A stretch of 64,000 nucleotides of DNA from a virus (IMGVR_UViG_3300029928_000002:64001-128000); one strand, 5' to 3'. Counted from the first letter of the stretch, positions 1 to 51,767 are shown. A program made the numbers and translations. The notes: generated by a model not told the origin, from the letters alone.

Positions 1-1
1 T

Positions 2-1240
2 CAATCTGGAGGAACTATTGACGAACCTTTCTTTATTCCAACAGATTGGGAACCTCAAGATACTTTATCTAAATTTTAGAAAGGTGGCTCTATAAATATT
101 ATACCTGAAGGTGCTCTCCATGCTAGATTACATCATATGGAAGATGCTAAAGATCTTACTAAAAAGGGAATCCCTGTAGTAGACAATAAAGGAGTTCAAC
201 AAGCTGAAATTGAACGTAACGAAATAATCTTTAGAAAGGAAGTTACTGATAAAATAGAGCAACTTGCCAAAGAAGGTACTGATGATGCTGCTATAGAATG
301 TGGTAAATTACTAGCTAAAGAGATTGTAGAGAATACAGACGATAAAACTGGATTAGTTCCTACATTATTTGAGAAGAAGTAGGATGGAGGAATAGTAAAC
401 CCTTCCAATACTCAGAACTTCTTAAATTAGCTTAACACTGCATGGAGCTAGCAGTTGGGCAATGTAAATACTAATTTACCCTCGCAGAAAGATTTACAAG
501 GTCTGTAGAATACTTTAGATATATAGGCTTAGAAACAAGCAGAAAAAAATCTTAGAACTAAATCTATGGTAGGTACAGCTGTTTAGGGAGTTATAAATGC
601 TATAGGTGAAGGAGAACAACAAAAAGCCTTAAATGAAGCTGCAGAATAGTAGCAAAAAGATGCAGCTATTCAAGGTACTGGAGATATGAATGGTAATGAG
701 AAAATGTATCAGCAACTATAGCAAAATACTCTTCCTAAAGTTCCTACTGCAGAAAAGGGAATTAAAGTTCCCTACGAAGAATGGGTTAAAGATGTAAATC
801 CTAAATTTCTAAGTCCTCTATATGATTTAAAATCGGCTTATGAATATAATCCAGAATTGGTGAATAAATGGAAACAAGCTGTTAATTCAGATAATCCTGA
901 TAAATATTTAAATCTTGTAGAGAAAAACGCTGATGGAGAAGAAATTTATCCTTATCATTTACCTTCTGTAATGCAATTACCTGATGGTGATTACATATTC
1001 TTAAAATTAGGTAAAGAAGATTAGAATAAAGAATTGTAGGGAGAATTAGATTTTTATAATGCCAATAAAGATTTCAAGAAGCTCTATCAGTTAGAGTTTG
1101 ATAAAGACGCTAACAGGTATTTCTATAGAAAGAGATAGAAGTCTTCTAAAAATAAAATCGGAGGTATTTTAAAAGTAATTAGTGATTATGACGATTCTAA
1201 ATTAGATAAGTTAGAATCAATATTAAAAGTAATAGACTAA
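2..1240 (+). CDS. 5'-truncated virion/cargo-type protein (TAG=Gln), >412 aa
   Basis: Frame 2 has no TAA/TGA from the window start to TAA 1238-1240, only TAGs. The stop overlaps the next ATG (TAATG). It carries several KxQxGG-type motifs. The virion role is inferred from context. Confidence 0.8.
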
Positions 1241-1809
1241 TGGAAGAAATAAATATTAAACTTGGAGATAAAGAATTTAAGGTTAAAAAAGCAGAAACAG
1301 AAGAAGAAAAAAGGAAAGGTTTAATGAATGTTGAATCTTTACCTGAAGATAGTGGAATGCTATTCTGCTGGGACAAGCCTCAAAAAGTAAGTATGTGGAT
1401 GCACAATACTAAAATTCCATTGGATATTATTTTTATAAATGAGGATTAGGAAGTTTCTGCTGTAAAACAAGGTAAGCCAGATGATGATACTCTACTTAGT
1501 TAGGATGATACATTATATGTTGTAGAACTTAATAAAGATAGTGGAGTTAAGGTTGGAGATACTTTAGATTTAGAAGATGAAGATGGCCCTGTAATGAAAG
1601 TCTTAGCTCCTGATGGATCTACTTAGATGGAATTGTGGGGAGGAGAAAGAATTGTCTCTAGAAGAGAAACTAAGATTTTAATAAAGAAAGCTATTAAAGC
1701 ATATCAGTCTTAGAGTGATAATGATTATAGAACTTTAGGAAAGTATATGTTTAAAGTATTGAATAAACAAGATAATAGAAAACCAGAATATGTAACGAAA
1801 AAAGACTAA
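1240..1809 (+). CDS. DUF192/UPF0127-like protein with C-terminal extension, 189 aa (TAG=Gln)
   Basis: Motifs KGLM..SLPEDSGMLF, MWMHNTKIPLDIIFI and, after TAG readthrough, YVVELN..GVKVGD complete the DUF192 pattern. Ends TAA 1807-1809. Confidence 0.8.
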
Positions 1810-1865
1810 ATTTAATATCCCATTTTTTTAAATAATTTATTTATATCGTCAATAACTATGAAAAG

Positions 1866-1879
1866 GTATATTGGATTTA
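1866..1879 (+). promoter_or_regulatory. Candidate phage promoter element (G)TATATTGGATTTA
   Basis: Lies in the 1810-1921 intergenic gap. The same 13-mer occurs on the - strand at 62896-62908 upstream of another gene. Resembles the Bacteroidota -7 element TAnnTTTG with one change. Confidence 0.35.
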
Positions 1880-1921
1880 GTTGTAAATTTAATATTAAAT
1901 TTTTAAAAAACGTAATTAATT

Positions 1922-2224
1922 ATGAATTTGTAGTTTAGAAAATTTCAAGATGGCGGTCAAGTAACTCCAGATTAGAGTGCTGACCAGTCTCAACAAGAAC
2001 AAGCCGCTCCCCAAGAAGGAGGTCAGCAAGATCCTATGGCACAATTGATTCAAGCTGCTGCTCAGGCAGTTTAGAGTCAAGATTGTCAAACAGCTATGCA
2101 AGTTTGTCAAGTACTTGTTCAGATGGCTCAACAAGGTAGTGAAGCTCCTCAAGAAGGTACTGCTGATTAGGGAGAGCCTGTGTACAGAGCAGGTGGTAAA
2201 CTTCTTAGACGTATTACTTTGTAA
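1922..2224 (+). CDS. Small Gln-rich protein, 100 aa (TAG=Gln)
   Basis: MNLQFRKFQDGGQV...VYRAGGKLLRRITL*. Open frame with 4 TAGs, ends TAA, followed by a terminator hairpin. Absent from the ORF track. Confidence 0.8.
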
Positions 2225-2239
2225 TATATTTAAATGTAC

Positions 2240-2273
2240 AGGGAGCATATCTATTTTGATATACTCCCTTTTA
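2240..2273 (+). terminator. Rho-independent terminator
   Basis: GGGAGcATATC-tattt(t)-GATATaCTCCC stem followed by TTTTATT. Confidence 0.65.
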
Positions 2274-2283
2274 TTGTTTATAT

Positions 2284-5200
2284 ATGATGGAAAATAATAA
2301 CACTACATAGACTACATCTACTCAAACTGCTTAGAAGCCTTCTGTTCCAGAAGTATCTAAGACTATAGATGTTAATGGAATAAGTCTTGATAGAAGTGCG
2401 GTACTAGACCAACTTAACGGACAGTACAATAGCTTCTTCAATACTTATAAGAATATGTGGAGTAAAAAGCAATAGAAGCAAATATTAGCTCAAAGAGATG
2501 CTTTATTCTCCAATATACAAAATGGAAATATAAATAAAATAGGTAATAATACTGTAGATGTAACCAATATGGAAAATTCCGGCATTGATCCCACAATGAA
2601 CGGTGCTGGACAGATTAATGTTGGATATATATCTAAAGTAGGTAATTGGATGGCTAATAAATATAAGCAAGAACATCCTGAAAAGAAATTTGATGCTACT
2701 ACTTTAGATACTCTGTATAAGAACTACTTTTATGGAGGTTCTGATGATGGTGATACTCAAGCATGGTTAGATTTAGACCCTGCTGATGCTAAAGGAAAAA
2801 GAGGTACTTCCGGTAGAATTGCTGCTTTAAATGGTTGGCTGAATAGTCTCAATTTAGATGATTACTCTTCGGCAGATTCTGCTTTAGGAAGTATGGATTC
2901 TGTAAAATCCAGACTTACTAGACTTAGAACTGCTTTATCAGATGGAGTGCTTAATAACGAAGATTACATGGCAGCTAATTCTTTAGGTTTTAATCTTAGA
3001 AAATATCTGACTGATGAATCTTCTGATGATTTAGCTGCAAAATTAGCTGCACAAGCAGCCGGCAAGGCTGGTACAACAGGTGGAGCAGCCGGCAATGCAG
3101 CAGGTTCTACAGCAGGCGATACAACAGGTGGTACAACTGAAGGTTCGGAAACTCCAAAAAGATCCGCTGCAGAAGAAGCAGTATTTGGAACTACTAAAGA
3201 TGAAGATAAACAAGTAGCTTTAAATCTAGCTGATAGATACCTTAATATATTTAAATAGAATAAAGGTAGGTATGGACAAGGATTTGCAGCTTCACCATTA
3301 GGAGAAGTTCGTATAAAGACTAATGGAGTTTATGATCCTAATAGATCTTTAGGAGTGACTCTAGCTATGTTAAAGAGCTATGGATTTAATAATATAAATA
3401 GCTATCTTAACTATGTAGGTAGAAATGTATTTAGAAGAGGTTTTGGAGAATATCTTTCTAATTATAGAAATAAGAGAGTAGATTTAAATAGATATTTTAA
3501 GTCTACTGGTAGAAAACTTGTTGGAAATGCTCCTACTTATGGACAGCTTTATTCAACAGCTATGGCTAGTTATGTTAGACAGCTTAAAGCTGCTGCAGCT
3601 GCAGGTAAGTCTACAGAACCAATTTATAATTATAAAGGTAATTAGGTTATTGTAGTACCAGAAAGTTTAAATGAACAGACTGGTAATTTAGTATTATACG
3701 ATATAGATAAAGGACTGTTCTATAATGAGAATCTTGGTAATACTAATATCAAAACATCTAATGGAGGATCTTTGATGATGACTTATATGATGACAAAGTA
3801 TCCTTCAATATATAATTAGGACCAACCTTAGACTACTACGGCTCCAGACGTACAGGGCGAAGGAGAATAGACTACTACTACCAACACTGATTCTGCAGAA
3901 GATCGAGATACTGATTCTGACGACAATACAGTATCTTCTGAAAAACAAGGTGGTATTCTTAAAGCATATTTCGGCACTGCAATAGATTATGGTGGTGAAT
4001 CTGCTGATCCAATACAGCCAACATTACCCGTGCCTCCTTCTAAGACATAGATTGCAGCTAAAAGAGCATCGAATGCTGAAAAATTAAAAGCATTAAAACT
4101 ACAATAGGCTAGGAACAAAACAACTATTTCTAAAAATGGCGATTTGAATCTAAGTGCTTCAGACAAATTGAGGGCAGCCGCACTGGCTCAAGATATTATA
4201 AGTGCAGGAGCTGCTTATGGTGTGGGTCCCTACGGTACAACCGTTTCAGCAATTACAGGTTTAACTGGAGCAGCTACTGATGCAGCTGCAGATTGGATGG
4301 ATGATTCTATGACTACTGGAGAAAGACTCGCAAATTTAGGAGTAAACTTGGGTCTTACAGCTGTAGGATTAATTCCTGGAGTTAAAACAGTTACTACTGC
4401 GGGAAAACTTGGGAAATTTGCTATTAAATCTATACCAATACTGCTAGCTGTAAAAGCTGCTCCAGAAATGATTACGTCTTTCAAAAAAGCTGCAGACGGT
4501 AAAGATCTTACAGAAACTGATTATAAAAATATTGTATATGGCTTAAGAATGATTGCCGGCGGGTTTAAAGTTGGAGGACAAGCATATTCTAGTAGACGAT
4601 TTAAGGCAGAACGTAACGCCCAACCGACTACCCGTACCATGCAAGAAATATCTGTTAAAAATAATGGATAGGACGTAAAAGTAAGAGTTACTCCCCAACA
4701 GCTTAAGGATATTAACAAAGCTAAAATTCAGTCAGAAGCTAATGCTAGATTGCAACAAGCCTTAGCCGATAATGGGGTTAAAGAATCAGGAAACTATAAA
4801 GTAAATGATGGGTTATTCCCTGAAAACACTTCCTTAAATCCTTTTAAAAATAGTAAATCTAAGATTTAGGGTAAAGAAGTAACTGAATAGATAAATACAA
4901 ATGGGTTGGTAAGTGATGCTGCCATTGTAAATAGAGCAATGAATATAAAACATCCTTGGATGGCCAAACATCTTAGAACCAACTATGATGTTTACGTTAA
5001 CGGTAAATCTCCAATACGTTTATTCGATATGCCTTCAGTTAGACTATTCGCAGTCAAACAACCTACCTATAACAGAGCTACAGCTATGGAAGATGCTAGA
5101 AATGCAAGAAATGCTGATATTCAGACAGGTAATTCTTAGCCTTCTCCATAGCCTGCTCCACAACCTGCTCCATAGCCTTCTCCGGAACCTGCTCCATAGC

Positions 5201-7359
5201 CTTCTCCGGAACCTGCTCCAGTAGGAGGTAGTGGTACTTCAACAGGAAGTGGTACCTCTTCTGCAGGAAGTTAGCCCGCTCCACAGCCTTAGCCTACTCC
5301 ACAGCCTTCTCCAACAGGAGGTTCTTCAAGTACTGGAACATAGCCTTCCAGCGGAACTTTACTCAAAGATGTATAGAGTATATTCGATTTTAAAAATAAA
5401 GCTATACGCGGAGATAGGTTAGAATAGTTTGTAAGTAATAATAAGTAGGCTTTTGATAATCTTTCTAAAACAGATAAAAAAATCATAAGCGATATTATTA
5501 CTATGGAACAGGGTGCTTTTAAAGGTAGTTCTTATGACGAAGTTGTCAGAAAATAGTTATTGGATATAATAACTAAAATGACAGCTCCCGAAAATAATGC
5601 TCAAGCCTTAGCTGCTAATAAGAGTGTTCTAAGTTCTATTAGATACAGACACGGTGGTATTCTTAAAGCTCAAAATGGTGCGCAATTTACACCACAAGTA
5701 TTTGGTAAGGATAAAAATAGAACTTCTTATGGAGGTATAACTAATACTAATAATAATACTTCGTATTACTCTAATGTATTTACTCCTTATAGTAATTATC
5801 TTATTGATGAGTTAAAATAGTATGGCAAGGATGATACTTACGGTAACTGGCTTAATAATATGCAGGTTCAGCACCATGGTTTATATCAATCTGCTGGAGG
5901 TGCTGGAGGAAATTTCTTAAATACTGCTTATAATAATAATGCTGCTGCTACTAGACAGTATCAATCAGCTTACGATACAGATTCGTTATCTAAGAATCCT
6001 ACTGCTCATGGATTTAATACTAGAGGTATAGCTTTGGCTTCTTAGGCCGGTAGATATTCTAATGTAGGATATTCTAAACGTAATGGACAAGATTCTTTAA
6101 ATACTGCTTGGACACCTGATGGTTCGTATAGTGGACAGACTGATGATAGAAGAATCTTAGGAAGATTAGGCGACTTTACTGATCAACAACTTACTGATTG
6201 GAATAATAAATTAAAGACTGTTGGTTGGGAATAGTATTTAGACCCTACTACTAATTACTATATGTTAAGGAGATTAAACACTCCTACTGGTACTTAGGAA
6301 GACAAGTCTACTAAAGTCGATGGAGCAAATCCTGATGGAATGAAAAAATCTACTGTTCTATAGGATATTGTTGGAGTTATAGATAAATCTAAACCTGCAA
6401 TACTTGGAGCAATTAAAGCCGGATGGGATAATAGATTTAATACTAAGCAGATGAATGAAGCTCTTAGTCATATGAATCCAGTACTGTATAATACTTGGGA
6501 TTTTAATAGAAAAATCTATGGTGATTATGCTACTAGAAACGAATATGACAGAGCGGGAGCAAATGCATAGTTACAAGCTGACAGAGTTGCAGCCAATACG
6601 GCTGATAGTTATCTAGGAGCAGCTACTCAAATGCAAGGTGTTTCACAAGCCGATGATAATAGAATTAAAGGCAGACTTGCTGATAACGATATGATTAGAA
6701 AGACTTATGAAGCCGCTTTGTAGGAGAATAAAGCTAATATCGAAAGACATTCTCAGAATGCTAATTAGAATAGACTTAATCTTAATAATAATGAGCGTGA
6801 GAGACTGTAGACAGTACTTACTACTAATAAGATGAATCACGATAACTGGGCTAGGTGGTATGATAAGTATGTATCATATCCTGCGGAAGAAGATTAGGTT
6901 AACAAGAAAGCATTGCAATAGAAGATAGATATACAAGATCTTGTGCTAAATTCTAATGCAGGTTTGGCCAACACTTTAAAAAATATTAAGGCTAAATGGC
7001 AACCTAAGTATGATGCTGCTACAACAGATGCCTAGAGGTTGTAGATTCAAAACGATATGTAGAAAGAATTAGATGCAGCTACTCTTGATTCTCAGAAAAG
7101 ATAGCTCTGGAATCTAGCTCAACTTAGAGGTTTGCATTATGATTATACTCCTATATGGGAAGCAGGTGATTCTAACTACAATACAGCTACACCTACCTAT
7201 TATAAAGATGGGGGTGCTGCATTGACTATAGCCAGAATACGTGAAAAGAATAAAGATAAGGATAGGCTTGCAAAAAAATGGTAGAAGTCTATAGATAACT
7301 TTTGGAACCAATTTAGTAAATTAAAATAGGCAGATTATTCTAAAATTGTATTTAAATGA
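2284..7359 (+). CDS. Large virion cargo/ejection-type protein, ~1691 aa (TAG=Gln), with hydrophobic helices and low-complexity linkers
   Basis: Track fragments at 2569, 3355, 4144, 4906, 5560 and 5860 share one frame and each ends in TAG. Ends TGA 7357-7359, overlapping the next ATG (ATGA). Gly/Ala-rich hydrophobic segment at ~4180-4560. Confidence 0.8.
5137..5220 (+). repeat. 12-nt tandem repeat encoding (Q/E)P(S/A)P x7
   Basis: Units: TAG CCT TCT CCA / TAG CCT GCT CCA / CAA CCT GCT CCA / TAG CCT TCT CCG / GAA CCT GCT CCA / TAG CCT TCT CCG / GAA CCT GCT CCA. Confidence 0.9.
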
Positions 7360-9230
7360 ATATAAATTTTAAAAAGTTCTAGAATGGGGGTTCAATAGCC
7401 CCCTTTCTAGCCTCTTATACACCAGTACAAGTAAATACAACAGCAGCTGACCCTGCTTTATCTTTATTTGATAATACTGGCAATTCTACAGCAACTACTG
7501 CTAAAAGTTCTGATAGTATTGACATGAAAGATACTATGGAACTATTAAAAAGTATGAGAGGTTTAGATACTGATGTATCTTTAGTTAGCACTACCCTAGC
7601 TTAGTAGGCTAAAAGAGATGCATTGTTTGGTACAGGAGATCCTGTATTACAATATTATAAGAATATAGATTTAATAAATAAAGTTATTGAATCTAAAGAA
7701 GAATATAAAGATGCTTACGATCAGGCTAAAGCTCAAGGAGCTTTGTCTGAAGCTGCTATTTCATCTGACGGTAGGGTGGTAGTTAAAACTTAGAAAGGAT
7801 ATAATTTAGTTACTCCTAGACAAGCTTTAGCCTTATAGGCACAAGGGGTAGCTGCTATATAGAAGAACTCAGATTTACTTAAAGCTCGTAGACACGACCC
7901 TTCTTTAGCTTTATAGAATGAAGTGTTATCTATAGTTCAAAACAGTGTATCATTTACAACTGTTAAGAAGACTGTAGATTCTATTGTAAAATAGTTAGGT
8001 AAATCTACTGTTACACAAGAAGGCTATAGTGCTAGAGAAGGTAACTAGATTCAAGCAGGTATTGCAGCTATTAAAAATGCTGGAGTAGGCCCTATGGATG
8101 GAGTTTATAAGGTAACTTATAAAAATGAAACTCAAGAAAAATAGGCTCAAATGGCTTTGGATGCTGTATATAGAAATCTAAATGATACTTAGAAAGCCTA
8201 TCTATAGTTAAATTCTGGAGGTACTCCAGAAGGAGTTTATGGCCTGTTAAAAGAAATGATATTAAGCCAAACTTCTTCCTTGCAGGAAGTTAGGTCTAAA
8301 TATCTTAAGCCTACTAATACTTCAACTGGTAGTGGTTCTTCTAAAGGAAGTAGTGCTTAGAATTCTTTAGGAGATGTCAAGATGGATCCGGCTGTCCAAT
8401 TTGCTTTAGGATATGGTACTAAAGAAAAAGTACCTATTATGGGTAAGGGACAGATAGGTATAGATGTTACTGCTAATTCTATTGCTATGTAGGATGCTCA
8501 AGGCAATCCTCAAGATATGCTTACTTTAGGACAATTAGTTAGCGGTCGTCTTGGAGGTATGTTTGTAAAACGAGCTTCTATGGACGGTGCTATGTTATCT
8601 CCAGATTCTCTTAACAAAGTTGTAGTAGATGGAGGTAGAGTTTATTCTACAGAATTACCAGTAGATAGGTAGGCTTTAGCTAAAGGTGTTGTCAGACCAG
8701 ACTTTGGATTACTTAACAAAATAGAACAAGCTAATAGCTAGTTAGGTAATCTTGGCAGAATACCACAAGATCAATTAACTCCTGCTTAGAAGACTTAGAT
8801 TAATAAAGTATATCAACGTAATGGTATTGCAGCTAAATACGATGTAAATGGTAATCTTACTTCTGAGTATAGAAGATTTGCTGTAGTGAATGGTACTGCT
8901 ACAGAAAGAGCTTTCCAAGGAGGGTAGCCTAACTTTACAATAGAAGCAGCTGAAGCTGATGATCAAGCTAGAAGTAATTATGTAGATAATATCAAACAAC
9001 TTACTCAAAACAAAGACTTTAAGTTGGATAACGGTTGGTTCGGAACATTTGGTACTGAAAAAGTATATAAAGGTACTATCTTTATTCCTATGAGTAGTAA
9101 TTTTGTAGATTACTATACAGGTAGTGGTATAAAGATGTCTGCCAATCAGTTTGACTAGATATAGCAACTTCAAAATCATAAAGATTAGTTATTAAGTAGG
9201 TATAATAATCCTGGTAATTTATCACAATGA
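7356..9230 (+). CDS. Virion/cargo-type protein of unknown function, 624 aa (TAG=Gln)
   Basis: Starts MNINFKKFQNGG. ATGA overlaps at both ends. The frame showed only TAG interruptions where read. Completely missed by the standard-code track. Confidence 0.8.
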
Positions 9231-12200
9231 TTCAGTAGAAAGAAAATGATATGTTGCTCAATGTTCTTGAAAATCCGTCATTTAGTATTGCGGATTTTCA
9301 AGATATTGGGCTTGATGTAAATAATACTTCTTTACAATCTAAAGATGTATATAAGAACAGTCAACAGGTTACTAGCAATCCTGCTGTACAAGATAATAAC
9401 GGAAACTTAGATACTGCTAAATTAGATGCAATTTATAATACAGCTACTGCAGTTTACAATACTATGGCTCAACAGGGTTACGATAAAACTCAAGATGTAA
9501 AGACATAGTATAGTAAATATGATATATTTGCACCTGATGATTAGGTAGATTGGGCACCTCAGTTTAATATTAATACTCATGAAGTAAACCCTGATAGGAC
9601 TACTTATTCTACAGTAAGGTTTGGTGAGCAAGGTGAGAGAACTAAAACTCCACAAGAAATAGCTCAATCTCAAAAAGTATATAATCCGGCTACAGGAGAA
9701 TGGGAGGCATCTCCAGAAGAATCATTCTTTGGTAATTTTAAAGATGTAAGGGCCTTAGCTTAGTACGATGAAGATGTTGATATTAATGGTAAGACTAAAG
9801 GGCAGACAGGATTTGATGCTGATAATATAGCACATCATGCCGGAGAACTAAAGATAAATCCGGATACTGGTACATATTATTATGAAGACCTTAATGGTAG
9901 AAATATTAGTGGTAGATAGCTTTTACATATATCTGACGTTCTTACTAATGAAGACAGCCCAATAAATGCTATTGACTTCTTAGATAGCGATGATATTCAT
10001 AAATCTGCTGTAGGTTCTTTTGTAAAGAATGCTGCTTTAGTAGGTAGTATGTTTTTACCTTATGTAGGACCAGTAGTTACTGGTGCTACTATAGTACAAC
10101 AAGCTGCTTCTTTTGGAGCTACATTGGGTAAGATACTTACTTCTTCTGACAATGCTGCTATGAATTATTTATAGGGTATGTCAGAAGCTACCAATTTCTC
10201 TAGAACTAGATCTGAATATGCTTCATAGAATATGTGGTCTCTGGAGAATTTATTTGGAATGATTGGAGATACTGTAGCCCAACTTAAGCAGTAGAGAATG
10301 TTGTTTGAACAACTTCCTAAACTTGTGGGAATGGATGGTAGAGTTCTTTCTGCTAAAGGCTAGCAAGCTATGTAGGACGAACTTCTAGCTAAATACAATA
10401 AATCTGGAGTTTTGGATAAAGCTATTCAAGACAAGTTTAAAATGCCTATGAATGAGCTTTATAAAACCAATCCTGCAGAGTTCATGAATGCTACTGAGTA
10501 GGTAAGATTAATTAATAATCTCAAAGCTGCATAGTCAATAGAGAATTATGTAAAGGATTATTATAATGTTGGTGGAGTTTTGTCTAAGGCTTATATGACA
10601 ATGCTTACTGTTAATGACACCTATCAAGAAGCTAAAAATGCCGGAGCATCCGATTCTTTAGCTGCACTTACTACTATGGGATATGCTGCTGCTGAGTATG
10701 CTTTATTAAGTACAGGATTAGGTGAATGGATTTTGCCAGAACTTAGAGCTTCTAGAATGTAGAACAAAGCTATTGTAAAAGCTCTAACTAAAGATACTGT
10801 ATAGGCTTTCGAATAGGCTAATGCTAAAGCTATAACTCCAGAACTCAAACGTAGTTTATGGGCCAAGACAATTAACTTTGGTAAAAAGCTATTTAATGCT
10901 GATTATGCAGTAGGTAGATAGGGAACTTTGGGTAAAACTATTGCTTCTACTGCAGCTTCTGCCTTAGGTGAAGGTACTGAAGAAGTAAGTGAAGATGTAC
11001 TTCAAGACTTTGTAAAGAGAACGTACAATTTCTATAATGAAATTAATGGCTCCTCTTCAAGAATGCATACCGAAAATTGGAAAGACCAATACTTAATGGA
11101 TTTCTTGGGAGGTGCTTTAGGTGGTGGTATAGCTAATGTATCTATTAATTTTAAAACTAATAGAGAAGCTAGTAATATGACTACCGAAAAAGCTGCTCAA
11201 CAACTTGTGTATATGAGTAGAAATAAAGAGCAGCTTAATGATTTCTATAAGGTATTGGATAAAACAGATATTGGCAATAAATATCTGTCTGCCACCAAAA
11301 CTGTAACTGATTCTAATGGAAATGTTATAGGTTATGAACAAGGTACTAAAGACGATAATCAGGATAAAGCTATTAAAGATTTAGTACGTCAGAATTTGGA
11401 TTTAATACAAACTACTTTAAGTGTTGATGGGGCAGATTTAGATGATAAATCTTTATTTGATGCTAATACTTTAAAAGATTTACGTTGGCAGTATTTATAT
11501 AACAGTACTTCTACCGCAAATCTTATACAATCATTTAATACTTTGGCTACTAGAGCTTTAAGAATTCATTCTGATATTGCAACTTTGAATCAGAAATTAC
11601 CAGACCAAGAATATAAAAAGGATGACCCACAATATCAAGATATACAAAAAGCTATACAATCTAAACAGCAAGAACTTACAGATGTTTAGAATCAAATTAA
11701 AGATTTAAGAGAAGGTAAAAAGTCTGCCTTGTTTATGGCACAGGCTATACTTGAAACTACTCCTTATGTATTACAAGGATTTGATAAAGCTGCTACATTC
11801 CAAGGATTTGCTGAAACTAATAGTGGAAAGAAATATGAAGATATTTCAGACGATGAATTAAATAGTTTAAAAACTAAATATCAAGATTATATTAATGGGC
11901 CTAAAAAAGAATATGTAGCACAAGCTACTAATCAGTATTTATATGCTACAAGACTATTTAGTAATAAGTTACAAGAAGTTTCGGATACTTACACACGGTT
12001 AGTTGATGAAGGGTAGAAAGAGTTAACACAACTATCTGATACAGTTAACGCTCTAACCGAATTATAGAATTTATCATAGGAAGATCCCGATAAGTTTTTG
12101 GAAGTATCTTAGAAAGTCTAGGATCGTATTAAAAACTCTGTTGCTTTATCTAAAGAAGACTTAGATAGGTTAGATGCTTTAGCAAAAGCTAATGATAATT

Positions 12201-24900: not shown

Positions 24901-27900
24901 AAATCCTCTGATAATTTTAAAAGAATAGATGTAAACACTGCAGTAGATAAGGACGGTAATGTAGACATACTAGATGACAACTTTAATAAAGTATTAACAC
25001 TATCTAAAAATTAGAACGATATTGAATAGGATCCAGATTTACATTAGGATGAAGTATGGCAATACGTTGATGGCTAGGGCCTTACACATAATGTAATAGT
25101 TACTGATGATTTAGCTTATTATGCTAATAATACTAAATGTAATGGAATTAAAGTTGGAGAAAAGAATTATGATGATTCTACTGAAGATTTATTAAAGAAT
25201 TCCAAAAATAAAACTGTATAGAATTGGTATTGGACTATTGCTAAGAGTGGAAGTATTACAGCAAAGAGTACATTTAAAGACAGTGTACGTGCTTTTAATG
25301 CCTTGCTTCGTAATGTTACAAAAGAAGGATATACCAGTAATAACTTACGTAATAGTTCTATAATAAGCAATCTTGCAGATTAGGGAACAGAAATCTGGGA
25401 ATCTTTCAAGAAATCATTAGATGTTGTTGCTGCTCGTATTCCTGCTCAATCACTACAGTCAGTAATGGCAATGAAAGTAGCAGGATTTATTGATAGTGAC
25501 GTTAATACAGCATATGTAAGTACCTTGCAGACTTTTTTATAGGGTTCCGACTATAAATAAATATTGTAGTCTTTAAATTTCGTGAACTGCGGGAAATTCC
25601 TTAGAGCTTATTTATACTAAAATATATTAGAAATAATTATATTGGTCATAATTAACTGTTATGAGTATAGTAAAAAGTAAATAAGATTGGACAATCCGCA
25701 ACTAAGTACCTTAATTTAAATTGAATTTATTAATGTGCTAATGCTATTTAAAATATAAATTTAATTATAAAAAAGGTAAAAGCTCATCGACTATCCCTTT
25801 ATGGGAGTAGCTGGAAGCATTTTACTTTAAAAAATAAATAATAGTAACAAATAAATTATAAAGTAAAATGGTTGTCCAGCGAAGTGCGAAACATTCTAAC
25901 AAGAATGATGATATAGTCAGTTTTGTATTGAAAGATACAATGTAAACGGATATTGACGCTGTATCATTAGCTATGTATGCTTTCGATAAACAAGGAAAGT
26001 TTGTATAGTGGTCTCCTTACTTTAATCTAAGTAGTGCAGATACTTTACAAGCTTCTTTGCAATTACCTTTCCCTACGGGAAAGATTTTAACTTCTACAGA
26101 TGTAAGATTTGATTAGAGAAATCCAAATAATATTATGTACTATATTAGTACCTCTAATAATCCAGATGATTCTAAACCTTTTGTATTATATAGAGGATAG
26201 GATGGAAGTCCTAAAATAAAATATAATTTAGATAATCCTACTAATATATTAACATTGGCCGGATTCCTAGATTATATAAATAACTATGGATTTGTCTTTA
26301 ATAGTGGGGGCTTGTCAGAAAAAACATATGGACAAGTTGCGGATTTATTGCTTCCTATAATTAATAACCATAATAATTATATAAATACAGTTAGAGATAG
26401 CCGTACTAAAGAAGATATGATAAAAAATAGTATATAGTAGGCGATCTTTGATATTGTATTGGATCCTAAAAACTAGCGTGAAGCACAAACCTCTGTAGAT
26501 ACTGCTACTAAATTAGCCAAAAGTGTTGCTAATGGTAAGACAGAAATAGCATCTCCAGAAAATGAGGAAGCCATAAGAAATACTCCAGGAGCATTCACTA
26601 CTAATATTTATGGATTTACTTCAAATCAAGTAGGTAAAAAAGCAATTGGTATTGCTGCAGCTACTGGATTAAAAGCCTATTTTACATTAACACAATACTG
26701 TAATAATCTTCTTAAACAGGGGAATGAGAATGCTTTAAAAAGACTTAGATTTGATGTAGAAATTGGAGGTGAGGAATATCATACACTCTCTAACATATAT
26801 ACAGATAAACCAAATTCTTTTGCAGAAGAATTAATAAATCTTGCTAAAAATGACTAGGATTTTGCTCTACAAATATCTGTAATGGAATCTCTTTCTACCG
26901 ATAATGCTAAAGAGCTTTGTCTGTCTAAGTTAAATTGTACTACAGATACTATGGGATTGTGGCTATATGGATTAGCTATAGGTATGGATTTTAAAGATAT
27001 TGCTAAAATTATGATGTCTCCAACAGCCTTCTCATTAGCTAATACTATGAGAGGTAATGTATTTAATGGAGATACTGCTGTATCTATTAATAGGTTAGGT
27101 AGCTATGTTAATGACGGCCCATAGAGTTCTACAGCCCAGAAAATTATTAAGAAAATTATTGGCGTAAAATACGATTTTTCAAAACCTTTGTACGAAAATT
27201 TTAAAAATCATCTTGGTACTCAAGAGGACAGTGAAGATACTGATACTGAAATACTAAATCTACTTCAAGCTGATTTAAATAGTGTATCTGCTTCAGATGG
27301 TAAGGGAATTACTCATTAGGAATATTTGGATTATGCAAAAGGTGTAGATGAAATAGTGTAGTGGTTGCGGTTGTATAGAGAAGTAAATAACAATCATAGG
27401 GTATATGAAGATTTTATGCAGTTAGCTAAAGGAGCTTCTGAAATGTTACAATTAAGTCAAATATTACATCTAAATCAGGGACTATTTAATTCTGATACAG
27501 ATATTTTAGCTTTTATAGATAAATTCTCAAACCTCATAAATGATAGAAGGTATCAAAATAATCCCAAAGAGATTATTCCTAAAGAATCCAAAGTTACAAT
27601 AGATTTACATCAATTTGTAACTAATCCTAAATATAGAAATGATATTATTAACGCCTATGAAGATGTAAAAGTTTCTTTCAATATATTAGATGTATTGGCT
27701 AATATGCCTACATATTTCCAATATTTAAAGACATTGGATTTGCAGCACGCTATGAACTATAATATTTCTAGTAAATATAGAGCAATGACCGATATTGGCA
27801 AGAGAGCTGTGAATTATGTAGGAGCACATAGTGCTAAAGATGTTCAAAAGGTATATAAAAGAGTATCTAACTATATAGATATTTACACTGCTGCTAAATG

Positions 27901-50809: not shown

Positions 50810-50847
50810 TAATAGCCTACATAGAAAATAATATCTATATAGGCTAT
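50808..50847 (-). terminator. Terminator-like hairpin
   Basis: On the - strand: ATAGCCTATATAGA-loop-TCTATGTAGGCTAT-TATT (U.G compatible). Confidence 0.55.
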
Positions 50848-50854
50848 CTTATTA

Positions 50855-51121
50855 TTAGAAATTAATGTTAGAAAGAGTATAATTCAATGTTTTAATAGTT
50901 TCATTTAATTTGTCAATTGTTTTTTGCAGCTCTTTAAGTTTGGCAACATCTGCTGAATCATCCTCATCAGATTTATCTGAATCTTCATCTGAATCTGCTA
51001 CGTAATGCAATGAAGAATACATATTATCATCTTCTAGAGCTTTTGCAAATGCTTTATAAAACTCATCTTCCGATTTAAATTTCTTACCATTAATCATTCC
51101 TTCAAATACTTCTTTTTTCAT
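50855..51121 (-). CDS. Hypothetical acidic/coiled-coil protein
   Basis: 88-aa ORF, FEGMINGKKF..E.EF, Asp-rich linker. Confidence 0.7.
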   Translation of the reverse strand: MKKEVFEGMINGKKFKSEDEFYKAFAKALEDDNMYSSLHYVADSDEDSDKSDEDDSADVAKLKELQKTIDKLNETIKTLNYTLSNINF

Positions 51122-51139
51122 TATTTTAAAAATTAAAAC

Positions 51140-51530
51140 TATTAGAGATACCCTCTTTATGCCGATGTTATAAAATTAATTCCTAGAGCCTGTGGAAGGC
51201 TTGGAAGTTGGGAATAACACCCAGTAAAACCACTTCGTGCTACTACACTACTATTTTCAAAATCATAGTATGGCTAACTATGAAATTTAAGTGGTCGGCT
51301 CATGTACAGCCACGGATTGCCATGTATCGAATCTAGCCTAACTTAAAAAAGTCATCGGCACCCGTTGTTAGAGGGTAGGACAGAGCGGGATTAAAGCTAT
51401 CTGTACACGAAACAGGAGATAAACTCCACTGTTTGAGGTTTTTATTATGTGGTCAAACGAAACTGCTAAACACCACTAAGATTTTTTTGATTCAAAACAA
51501 ACATATCGGCTACCTAAAATAGGTAACTGT
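51140..51530. ncRNA. Putative large structured non-coding RNA or cis-element, family not recognised
   Basis: ~420-nt gap with no ORF in the track, visibly GC-richer than other spacers. Long-range stems TACCCTCT/AGAGGGTA and TGCCGATG/CATCGGCA enclose several nested hairpins, followed by more hairpins. Confidence 0.6.
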
Positions 51531-51545
51531 TAATTATCTATAAAA

Positions 51546-51767
51546 TTAATTCTGCTTGCCTTTAAGAATTTCATCAATCTTACTTTCAATCTTCTTAACA
51601 GCGTCTGCAATAGAAGCAGAATCTTTATCCAGCTTACCGAAGACTTCTTCGAGCTTAGATTTCAAATCTACAAACTTATTACCATTCTTCTTGTAAATAA
51701 AGTAAAGAACAGCGAGTACAATAACAATAGTAATTAAATTACCGGCAATTACACTTAATACTACCAT
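51546..51767 (-). CDS. Small single-pass membrane protein with coiled-coil tail
   Basis: N-terminal hydrophobic helix, then YKK and a heptad-like tail. Confidence 0.7.
   Translation of the reverse strand: MVVLSVIAGNLITIVIVLAVLYFIYKKNGNKFVDLKSKLEEVFGKLDKDSASIADAVKKIESKIDEILKGKQN

Follow-up and report, generated by a model that had tools for sequence, protein, structure and literature searches.

A candidate structured RNA family outside Rfam 15 in the replication region of crAss-like phages

The crAss-like phages rank with the most abundant viruses in the animal and human gut and are known to carry group I introns, and their non-coding RNAs are, to our knowledge, almost unexplored, the only experimental hint being a pair of early RNAs of phage phi14:2. 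In this crAss-like phage, abundant and persistent non-coding RNAs are made from gaps of the early region and were reported to be of unknown function, and the g005–g006 gap was described as the source of an abundant long non-coding RNA of unknown function (bioRxiv 10.1101/2020.03.07.982082). Here we observe that the g005–g006 gap (NC_021806, L062:4031-4502, plus strand) is a tmRNA gene: it matches RF00023 at 46 bits (gathering score 47; E 2.6e-16), and at 4031-4500 ARAGORN predicts a tmRNA whose tag is GSSVQKLAMVA*, such that tmRNA genes do occur in crAss-like phages. The element described below differs from the RNA of that gap in not being a tmRNA. It shares with the phi14:2 RNAs a position in a long gap of the early or replication part of the genome, as well as the direction of the genes around it, but it is known from its sequence alone and has neither sequence nor model similarity to them, as R1, the covariance model built from the element, finds nothing in bases 1-9000 of phi14:2.

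Several other described RNAs resemble the element in part. ROOL (RF03087) and GOLLD (RF01998) are large ornate RNAs of phages and prophages that were found in metagenomes, ROOL in rumen samples; like them, the element is a large, intricately folded and phage-borne RNA, but it is ~335 nt long where they measure roughly 580-800 nt, it matches neither of their Rfam models at E up to 10, and it does not lie beside tRNA genes. With the double-pseudoknot core of group I introns (P3/P7) it shares long-range helices that interlock two domains compactly, and with ribozyme cores it shares unpaired junction bases that are kept more tightly than the helices, but its strand order is different, it has no exons to join and Rfam does not match it. 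It is similar to tmRNA in size, in having several pseudoknots and a terminal helix that joins the ends, and in a GAUUCGA stretch as in the 5′ part, but it lacks a T arm abutting the 3′ strand of a 7-9-bp helix and has no conserved tag frame. Lastly, processive antiterminator RNAs (HK022 put, EAR) are ~70-120 nt long and are not known to have long-range pseudoknots; the element is likewise a structured RNA in a long co-directional operon, just behind a terminator-like hairpin, but it shows no homology to these RNAs and, at ~335 nt, contains long-range pseudoknots.

The window, by which we mean the whole stretch of DNA analysed (64,000 nucleotides), comprises bases 64001-128000 of a 155-kb IMG/VR virus record, the source of which is a crAss-like phage that reads TAG as sense in its late genes and carries a CUA suppressor tRNA. 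The element lies in an ORF-free gap of 424 nt (51122-51545; no ORF of at least 60 aa, table 11) bounded by minus-strand ORFs at 51546-51767 (73 aa) and 50855-51121 (88 aa). It had been singled out in an initial annotation as the largest intergenic gap in the window, which is true if TAG counts as a sense codon in the recoded late block; the runner-up under that reading (25561-25972) measures 412 nt and has a GC of 0.26. Within the element's gap GC is 0.40-0.43, as against ~0.28 in the flanks. The surrounding genes, all on the minus strand, form a replication and nucleotide-metabolism block that includes a Dda-like helicase, a dUTPase, an ATP-dependent ligase, a sigma-like factor and polA. The element occurs once in its own genome, and none of the tRNA genes of this genome (at ~7.5 kb and 147-149 kb) adjoins it.

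A diverged homologue, L036, was found in IMG/VR contig 3300013936_000015 (136.5 kb) by means of an exact 19-mer from a shared unitig, and a third sequence, L002, is a near-identical copy from the window's own lineage that differs by two SNPs. The conserved core of the RNA gene (51150-51482, minus strand, ~333 nt) begins at its 5′ end with AUCUUAGUGG, finishes with the outer-helix 3′ strand and aligns with L036:10132-10447 and with L002; our alignment, A3, consists of window 51146-51486 (minus strand), L002 and L036. R1 scores 388 bits in the window and 312 bits in G006, the genome of L036, where the element is again single-copy. Whole-genome blastn aligns only 47 kb of the two phage genomes, with a mean identity of 69%, and among aligned segments of at least 150 bases the element has the top identity (81.9%); across the same two phages, polA is 74% identical (protein) and the suppressor tRNA 79%. 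The RNA is thus more conserved than polymerase, ligase and suppressor tRNA across two phages that share little other DNA, and RNAs under such constraint are usually in contact with conserved machinery.

This conservation is unevenly distributed. The 5′ block (51426-51482, minus strand), made up of hairpin B and an A-rich linker (AUAAUAAAAACCUC), is unchanged between the window and L036 over ~55 nt while the remainder differs by ~20%, and a 57-nt unitig covering 51426-51482 is common to both strains, also unchanged, in runs X1 and X3. Four DNA sequencing runs, all of one study, contain the region; their contigs show two SNPs as well as a second, diverged contig over 51278-51455. Within the core, unpaired positions are 87% identical and paired positions 79%, and the variable arms, with their long indels, are ~50% identical. 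As the 5′ block is unchanged and the unpaired bases are tightly kept, sequence matters as well as shape: judged by these comparisons, selection is on the fold and on the exact sequence of the 5′ block, and constraint at the level of sequence points to contacts with a conserved partner.

The setting of the element differs between the two phages. In L036 it sits in a 386-nt gap (10082-10467) between ORFs of 72 and 99 aa, and the 99-aa ORF is followed by a strong terminator (L036:10781-10813) and then polA, all on the element's strand, such that polA begins ~440 nt downstream of the element with one small ORF and the terminator between them. The flanks of the element show no alignment between the window and L036. 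The downstream 99-aa ORF of L036 is related to a 96-aa ORF that in the window lies two genes upstream of the RNA, aligning from residue 1 (Met) with the whole of that gene, and it is unrelated to the ORF that follows the RNA in the window, which encodes an 88-aa acidic protein. Because the flanking genes differ, the RNA is a module of its own with changed neighbours, one that in each phage is nonetheless followed, 20-28 nt on, by a small ORF.

Signals for transcription are few. A terminator-like hairpin (51509-51527, minus strand) stands after the 73-aa ORF and upstream of the RNA; it corresponds to the helix TACCT/AGGTA of the initial annotation, which is present in the window but only there, as it lies outside the conserved part of the RNA and has no counterpart in L036. 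The 88-aa ORF (50855-51121, minus strand) starts 28 nt after the RNA, probably shares a transcript with it, and is followed by a long hairpin at ~50810-50850. No terminator directly follows the RNA, the next one in both phages coming only behind the small downstream ORF, and the RNA may be only the 5′ leader of that ORF. We found no convincing dedicated promoter: a sigma-70-type scan gave nothing useful, the TATGTTTG box at 51498-51505 is missing from L036, and neither genome is enriched in the TAnnTTTG motif. Outside the window, repeated ACAAAATTTTGCGG-type words occur in non-coding DNA at the left end of the genome record (G000:C1:120-300), where they may be promoters or terminal repeats.

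A first model of the fold, built from the helices of the initial annotation, had 55 pairs (99.4% paired), of which 10 were compensatory. When helices shared by both lineages were searched for systematically, the pseudoknot grew to 11 bp and a second long-range helix came to light. The final model, with 67 pairs in 10 helices, is 100% paired in all three sequences. Thirteen pairs are changed on both sides, each such change being a single event as there are two independent lineages only. The model is reached by 0 of 500 shuffles, and sliding the partners by 1-3 columns leaves 0-1 compensatory pairs.

Read from its 5′ end on the minus strand, the RNA begins with hairpin B (stem 51472-51476 with 51449-51453), which has an 18-nt loop, is invariant and has no compensatory pairs. 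Hairpin C (51410-51434) has a lower stem ACA/UGU and an upper stem GGAG/CUCC that becomes GGGA/UCCC in L036, with two compensatory pairs. Two long-range helices follow. PK1 pairs 51401-51411 (UUCGUGUACAG) with 51299-51309 (CUGUACAUGAG) over 11 bp, with three compensatory pairs and one change on one side only; the three sequences share a G.U inside it, and the minimum-energy fold of L036 predicts it unaided. PK2 pairs 51394-51399 (UAGCUU) with 51334-51339 (AGGCUA), and three of its 6 bp are compensatory (UAGCUU/AGGCUA to UGGUGU/ACACCA). The outer helix pairs 51370-51376 (ACCCUCU) with 51150-51156 and has two compensatory pairs (ACCCUCU/AGAGGGU to ACCGCCU/AGGCGGU); just inside it, P2 pairs 51353-51361 (GUGCCGAUG) with 51159-51167 over 9 bp that are invariant in the three sequences, and the 3′ strands of both helices (51150-51167) close the 3′ domain. 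Two small hairpins come next, P3h (51341-51352, ACUU/AAGU), with one compensatory pair (C-G to G-C), and P4h (51315-51333, GAUU/AAUC), which has an invariant 11-nt loop (CGAUACAUGGC) and no compensatory pair, as it falls in an invariant 21-nt block and its stem does not vary. Hairpin B, P2 and P4h, all invariant, are predicted helices with no compensatory pairs. The P5 arm (51228-51296, GACCACUU/AAGUGGUU) has one compensatory pair in P5 itself and carries a conserved purine-rich stretch with repeated UAG; it holds P6 (51263-51283; one compensatory pair, with G.U in L002 and U.G in L036) and a tentative P5a (51237-51248; one compensatory pair), picked post hoc. In all, four short helices beyond the ten of the model, with one compensatory pair each, were picked post hoc and are tentative. 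The remaining hairpins, X1 (51208-51224) and X2 (51180-51206), are variable, the sequence at 51180-51224 being different in L036, which has CCGAU/AUCGG and UUCUU/AAGAA hairpins at the same site. All of these features are on the minus strand.

Much of this architecture had been anticipated. The outer helix (TACCCTCT/AGAGGGTA), P2 (TGCCGATG/CATCGGCA), P5 (ACCACTT/AAGTGGT), P6 (CATAGT/ACTATG), hairpin C (AAACAG/CTGTTT with GGAG/CTCC) and hairpin B (GTGGT/ACCAC) were all proposed in the initial annotation and are kept in L036, and the pseudoknot that it guessed from TGTACAG/CTGTACA is real, forming part of the 11-bp PK1. The helices GAGCC/GGCTT and TTGGG/CCCAG are present in the window but are replaced by the two different hairpins of L036 and so belong to the variable arms; L036 lacks ACAGA/TCTGT and GGCT/AGCC, whose bases instead take part in PK1 and PK2; and of the three partners suggested for GCCGAT, only the P2 pairing is conserved.

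The strands follow in the order PK1, PK2, outer helix, P2, hairpin, PK2′, hairpin, PK1′, three arms, P2′ and outer helix′. The 5′ strands of the outer helix and P2 thus lie inside the PK2 loop, and the junction closed by P2 encloses the PK2 and PK1 3′ strands, a topology that amounts to a double pseudoknot. The minimum-energy fold contains P2 and the outer helix in the window as against PK1 and PK2 in L036, and these two sets might represent alternative folds. The sets have no bases in common, however, and compensatory changes preserve each of them, in line with one pseudoknotted fold; such a single knotted fold is the simplest reading of both helix sets in our model.

That the RNA is read from the minus strand follows from the internal G.U pairs, from the folding z-scores and from the orientation of the genes. 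Wobbles that fit the minus sense are the G.U of PK1 in all three sequences, a U.G in PK2 and the G.U of P6 in L002, such that the earlier suggestion that G.U pairs favour the plus strand was wrong; one A.C pair would favour the opposite sense. Folding z-scores for the minus strand are -2.83 in the window and -2.20 in L036, compared with -0.98 and -1.08 for the antisense, and the neighbouring genes are all in the sense orientation in both phages. The sense strand therefore folds better than shuffles in both homologues, but folding energy alone is modest, and it is the covariation that carries the evidence beyond chance.

Known RNA classes do not account for the element. In Rfam 15 (4227 families) the whole window has no match at the gathering score, and the gap and L036, searched at E up to 10, give only stray snoRNA and sRNA matches (E 0.25-8) that are inconsistent between the homologues. 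Together with the covariation and the folding energies, this bears out the initial view of a multi-domain structured RNA and candidate novel ncRNA. That view had also noted an absence of tRNA, tmRNA and group I hallmarks, and none of the refuting outcomes that it named has arisen. ARAGORN, with introns allowed, calls no tRNA or tmRNA at the element, nor any tmRNA in the window, in its genome G000 or in G006. The tmRNA models RF00023, RF01849 and RF04321 match neither homologue at E up to 10, although the same search finds the phi14:2 tmRNA at 46 bits, and no short ORF or tag frame is common to the window and L036. A separate gap of 334 nt outside the window (G000:C1:5195-5528; L079:311-458, minus strand; GC 0.38) has a sub-threshold match to RF01849, the two-piece tmRNA (23.9 bits, E 1.4e-4), and no ARAGORN call; it may be a divergent tmRNA-like gene.

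We also considered and rejected resemblances to tRNA. By eye, the 3′ strand of P2 is preceded by 7-12 unpaired bases and a hairpin that is not a T-loop, and is followed by AUAA or AUAG, with no CCA and no G3.U70. In place of a conserved cloverleaf loop, a loop-like CUCUAAC stretch becomes CUCUGAC in L002 and GCCUGAC in L036, and the acceptor stem of the suppressor tRNA, encoded elsewhere in the genome, shows no co-variation with the outer helix. The idea that the RNA displays UAG was dropped, the repeated-UAG stretch being partly inside the tentative P5a. Nor did we find a match to the covariance models of ROOL, GOLLD or other catalogued large RNAs in Rfam 15, and we know of no conserved sequence element of the large ribozymes that is evident by eye in the element. 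A reverse-transcriptase-linked ncRNA (retron msr/msd, DRT2, UG27 arrays) was rejected since no RT gene lies beside the element, and RVT_1 has no match in G000 (86% of the genome recovered). An RVT_1 gene does occur in G006 (G006:C1:88925-89440, L080; 74.9 bits, one in-frame TAG), ~61 kb from the RNA. Guide RNAs of IscB, IsrB or TnpB and IS110 bridge RNAs were set aside for want of a fitting adjacent gene and of a HEARO (RF02033) match, and no complement of the invariant block that would suggest an antisense target is common to both genomes beyond A+T-rich words. Neither a partner protein nor a target was identified. We found no description of the element in the literature searched, and no RNA sequencing run containing it, the four runs that do being of DNA. 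A catalogue of structured-RNA candidates from IMG/VR lists, in the part accessible, motifs of 29-151 nt only (PMC10690425).

Taken together, the element is very probably a real, selected, minus-strand structured RNA of a family outside Rfam 15. As to what it does, the reading that we favour, with moderate confidence, is a gene for a stable, trans-acting non-coding RNA of ~335 nt, encoded on the minus strand in the direction of the replication genes; the changed neighbours, the constraint at the level of sequence and the precedent of phi14:2 argue for it. Its synthesis would accompany that of the early or middle replication genes, after which it would be either set free or retained at the 5′ end of a short transcript that stops behind the next small ORF. 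The RNA has two interlocked domains: its 5′ part presents hairpins B and C followed by the PK1 and PK2 strands, and in its 3′ part several helices meet in a junction that P2 and the outer helix close. The whole might act in trans as a protein-binding scaffold or catalyst whose partner would be a conserved component of host or phage. Whichever role applies, the fold rivals those of ribozymes and large riboswitches in intricacy, and it offers a defined target of ~335 nt in a phage group with culture systems.

Beyond this, we can only speculate that the element is the founding member of a new class of large double-pseudoknotted RNA, either a ribozyme or the RNA core of a ribonucleoprotein, that would act on a conserved host machine. 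It is a tentative part of the same suggestion that the target might be, for example, the ribosome, RNA polymerase or tRNA metabolism. One might also imagine, with as much caution, the 55-nt block as a recognition module and the knotted 3′ domain as the structural or catalytic body, and no other locus of these TAG-recoding crAss-like phages might then be under constraint as tight as the element's. Were it indeed catalytic or RNP-forming, it would represent a new class of large functional RNA.

The main rival to a trans-acting RNA is a cis-acting leader, whether a large riboswitch, a processive antiterminator or an element of translation control, in which the two helix sets (PK1/PK2 and P2/outer helix) alternate and so set how strongly the genes behind are expressed. 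We regard this as unlikely. In its favour, the RNA precedes a small ORF by 20-28 nt in both phages, within a long co-directional block; a terminator-like hairpin stands before it and the next terminator comes only after the downstream ORF; the minimum-energy folds of the window and L036 choose different helix sets; and the X1 hairpin of L036, with its U-run, resembles an internal terminator. That last hairpin is not conserved in the window, however, and the downstream ORF differs between the phages, which makes a gene-specific regulator unlikely. Helix sets that have no common bases and are both kept by compensation fit one pseudoknotted fold, and 335 nt with an invariant 55-nt block far exceeds known antiterminator RNAs. 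If it is a leader nevertheless, it is an unusually large and knotted one.

A replication element, that is, a structured pre-primer or origin transcript for PolA-based replication, for which ColE1 RNA II and the origin R-loops of T4 are the models, seems improbable to us. Its appeal lies in position, as the RNA is in the replication module of both phages, among ligase, helicase, dUTPase and polA in the window and ~440 nt upstream of polA in L036, and in the A+T-rich stretch behind the outer helix in the window. This A+T-rich tail is not conserved in L036, though, the cumulative GC skew does not turn at the element, there are no iterons or repeats, the element is single-copy, and distant relatives with the same replication genes do without the RNA.

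Still less probable, in our view, is a free-standing or decayed self-splicing intron or other mobile ribozyme, whose recent transfer would account for high identity amid changed neighbours. In its favour are the double pseudoknot, the ribozyme-like size and the different flanks in the two phages, and the blank Rfam search is of little weight against a group I intron, because Rfam misses a candidate intron of this genome as well: L078 (G000:C1:135400-136700), a candidate ORF-less group I intron in a helicase gene outside the window, has no Intron_gpI match at E up to 1 and only a weak match to RAGATH-22. What tells against RF00028 is rather that both flanking ORFs are complete, unrelated and small, each with its own start and stop, leaving no exons to join, and that the observed strand order departs from the group I order P3-P4-P5-P4′-P6-P7-P3′-P8-P7′ with its G-binding P7, or, in shorter form, P3-P4-P5-P6-P7-P3′-P8-P7′. 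Against a mobile ribozyme of any kind, the element is single-copy per genome, with no homing endonuclease gene inside it or adjacent. A plus-strand protein gene that reads TAG as sense, as in the late genes of the phage, can be dismissed almost entirely: read in this way, an open stretch of 137 codons in plus-strand frame 2 crosses the gap in the window, but indels of 1, 2 and 2 nt between the window and L036 break all frames, those of 1 and 2 nt splitting this one into two overlapping frames in L036, mismatches fall 20/13/20 by codon position with no third-position excess, coding does not explain 13 compensatory pairs, and the orientation is against every neighbouring gene.

The family looks narrow, being limited to three IMG/VR contigs in two lineages and four runs of one study. 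Exact scans of 185,579 prokaryote genomes did not find the element; a 20-mer scan of IMG/VR returned already known contigs only, and a 21-mer with one N plus a gapped pattern gave 11 further loci, none of which R1 confirmed. Closer relatives of the phage do exist in Logan and ENA assemblies (ligases ~60-84% identical). Phages whose ligase is 39-49% identical show neither a comparable gap nor any match by BLAST or covariance model, metagenome contigs searched by ligase alignment yielded relatives only 34-47% identical and without a syntenic gap, GenBank phages (nearest ligase 42% identical) show no DNA match, and R1 finds no copy in 12 more distant relatives (G001-G005, G007-G012 and bases 1-9000 of phi14:2).

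Two look-alikes deserve mention. First, a distant relative, G001, has its own GC-richer gap of ~400 nt followed by a strong terminator (G001:C1 ~132130-132530; L011:1400-1800, minus strand), in which a 35-nt stretch resembles the linker and hairpin C (BLAST 89% over 27 nt; R1 8.9 bits). We rejected this 8.9-bit match as a homologue, as it is weak and partial, covering the linker and hairpin C only; the gap may hold an unrelated small RNA or a very distant relative. Second, the 19-mer scan that found L036 also turned up an exact match of 19 nt to the hairpin B loop in reverse complement, at L034:8506-8524 and L037:8287-8305 (IMG/VR 3300042881_001505 and 3300042350_001553), with a further 11 nt nearby. 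This match lies in the sense strand of a gene for a 1377-aa tail fibre of an unrelated phage and falls on a conserved YYKPNETAKQ motif in the C-terminal chaperone domain; it may be due to chance or reflect an antisense relation.
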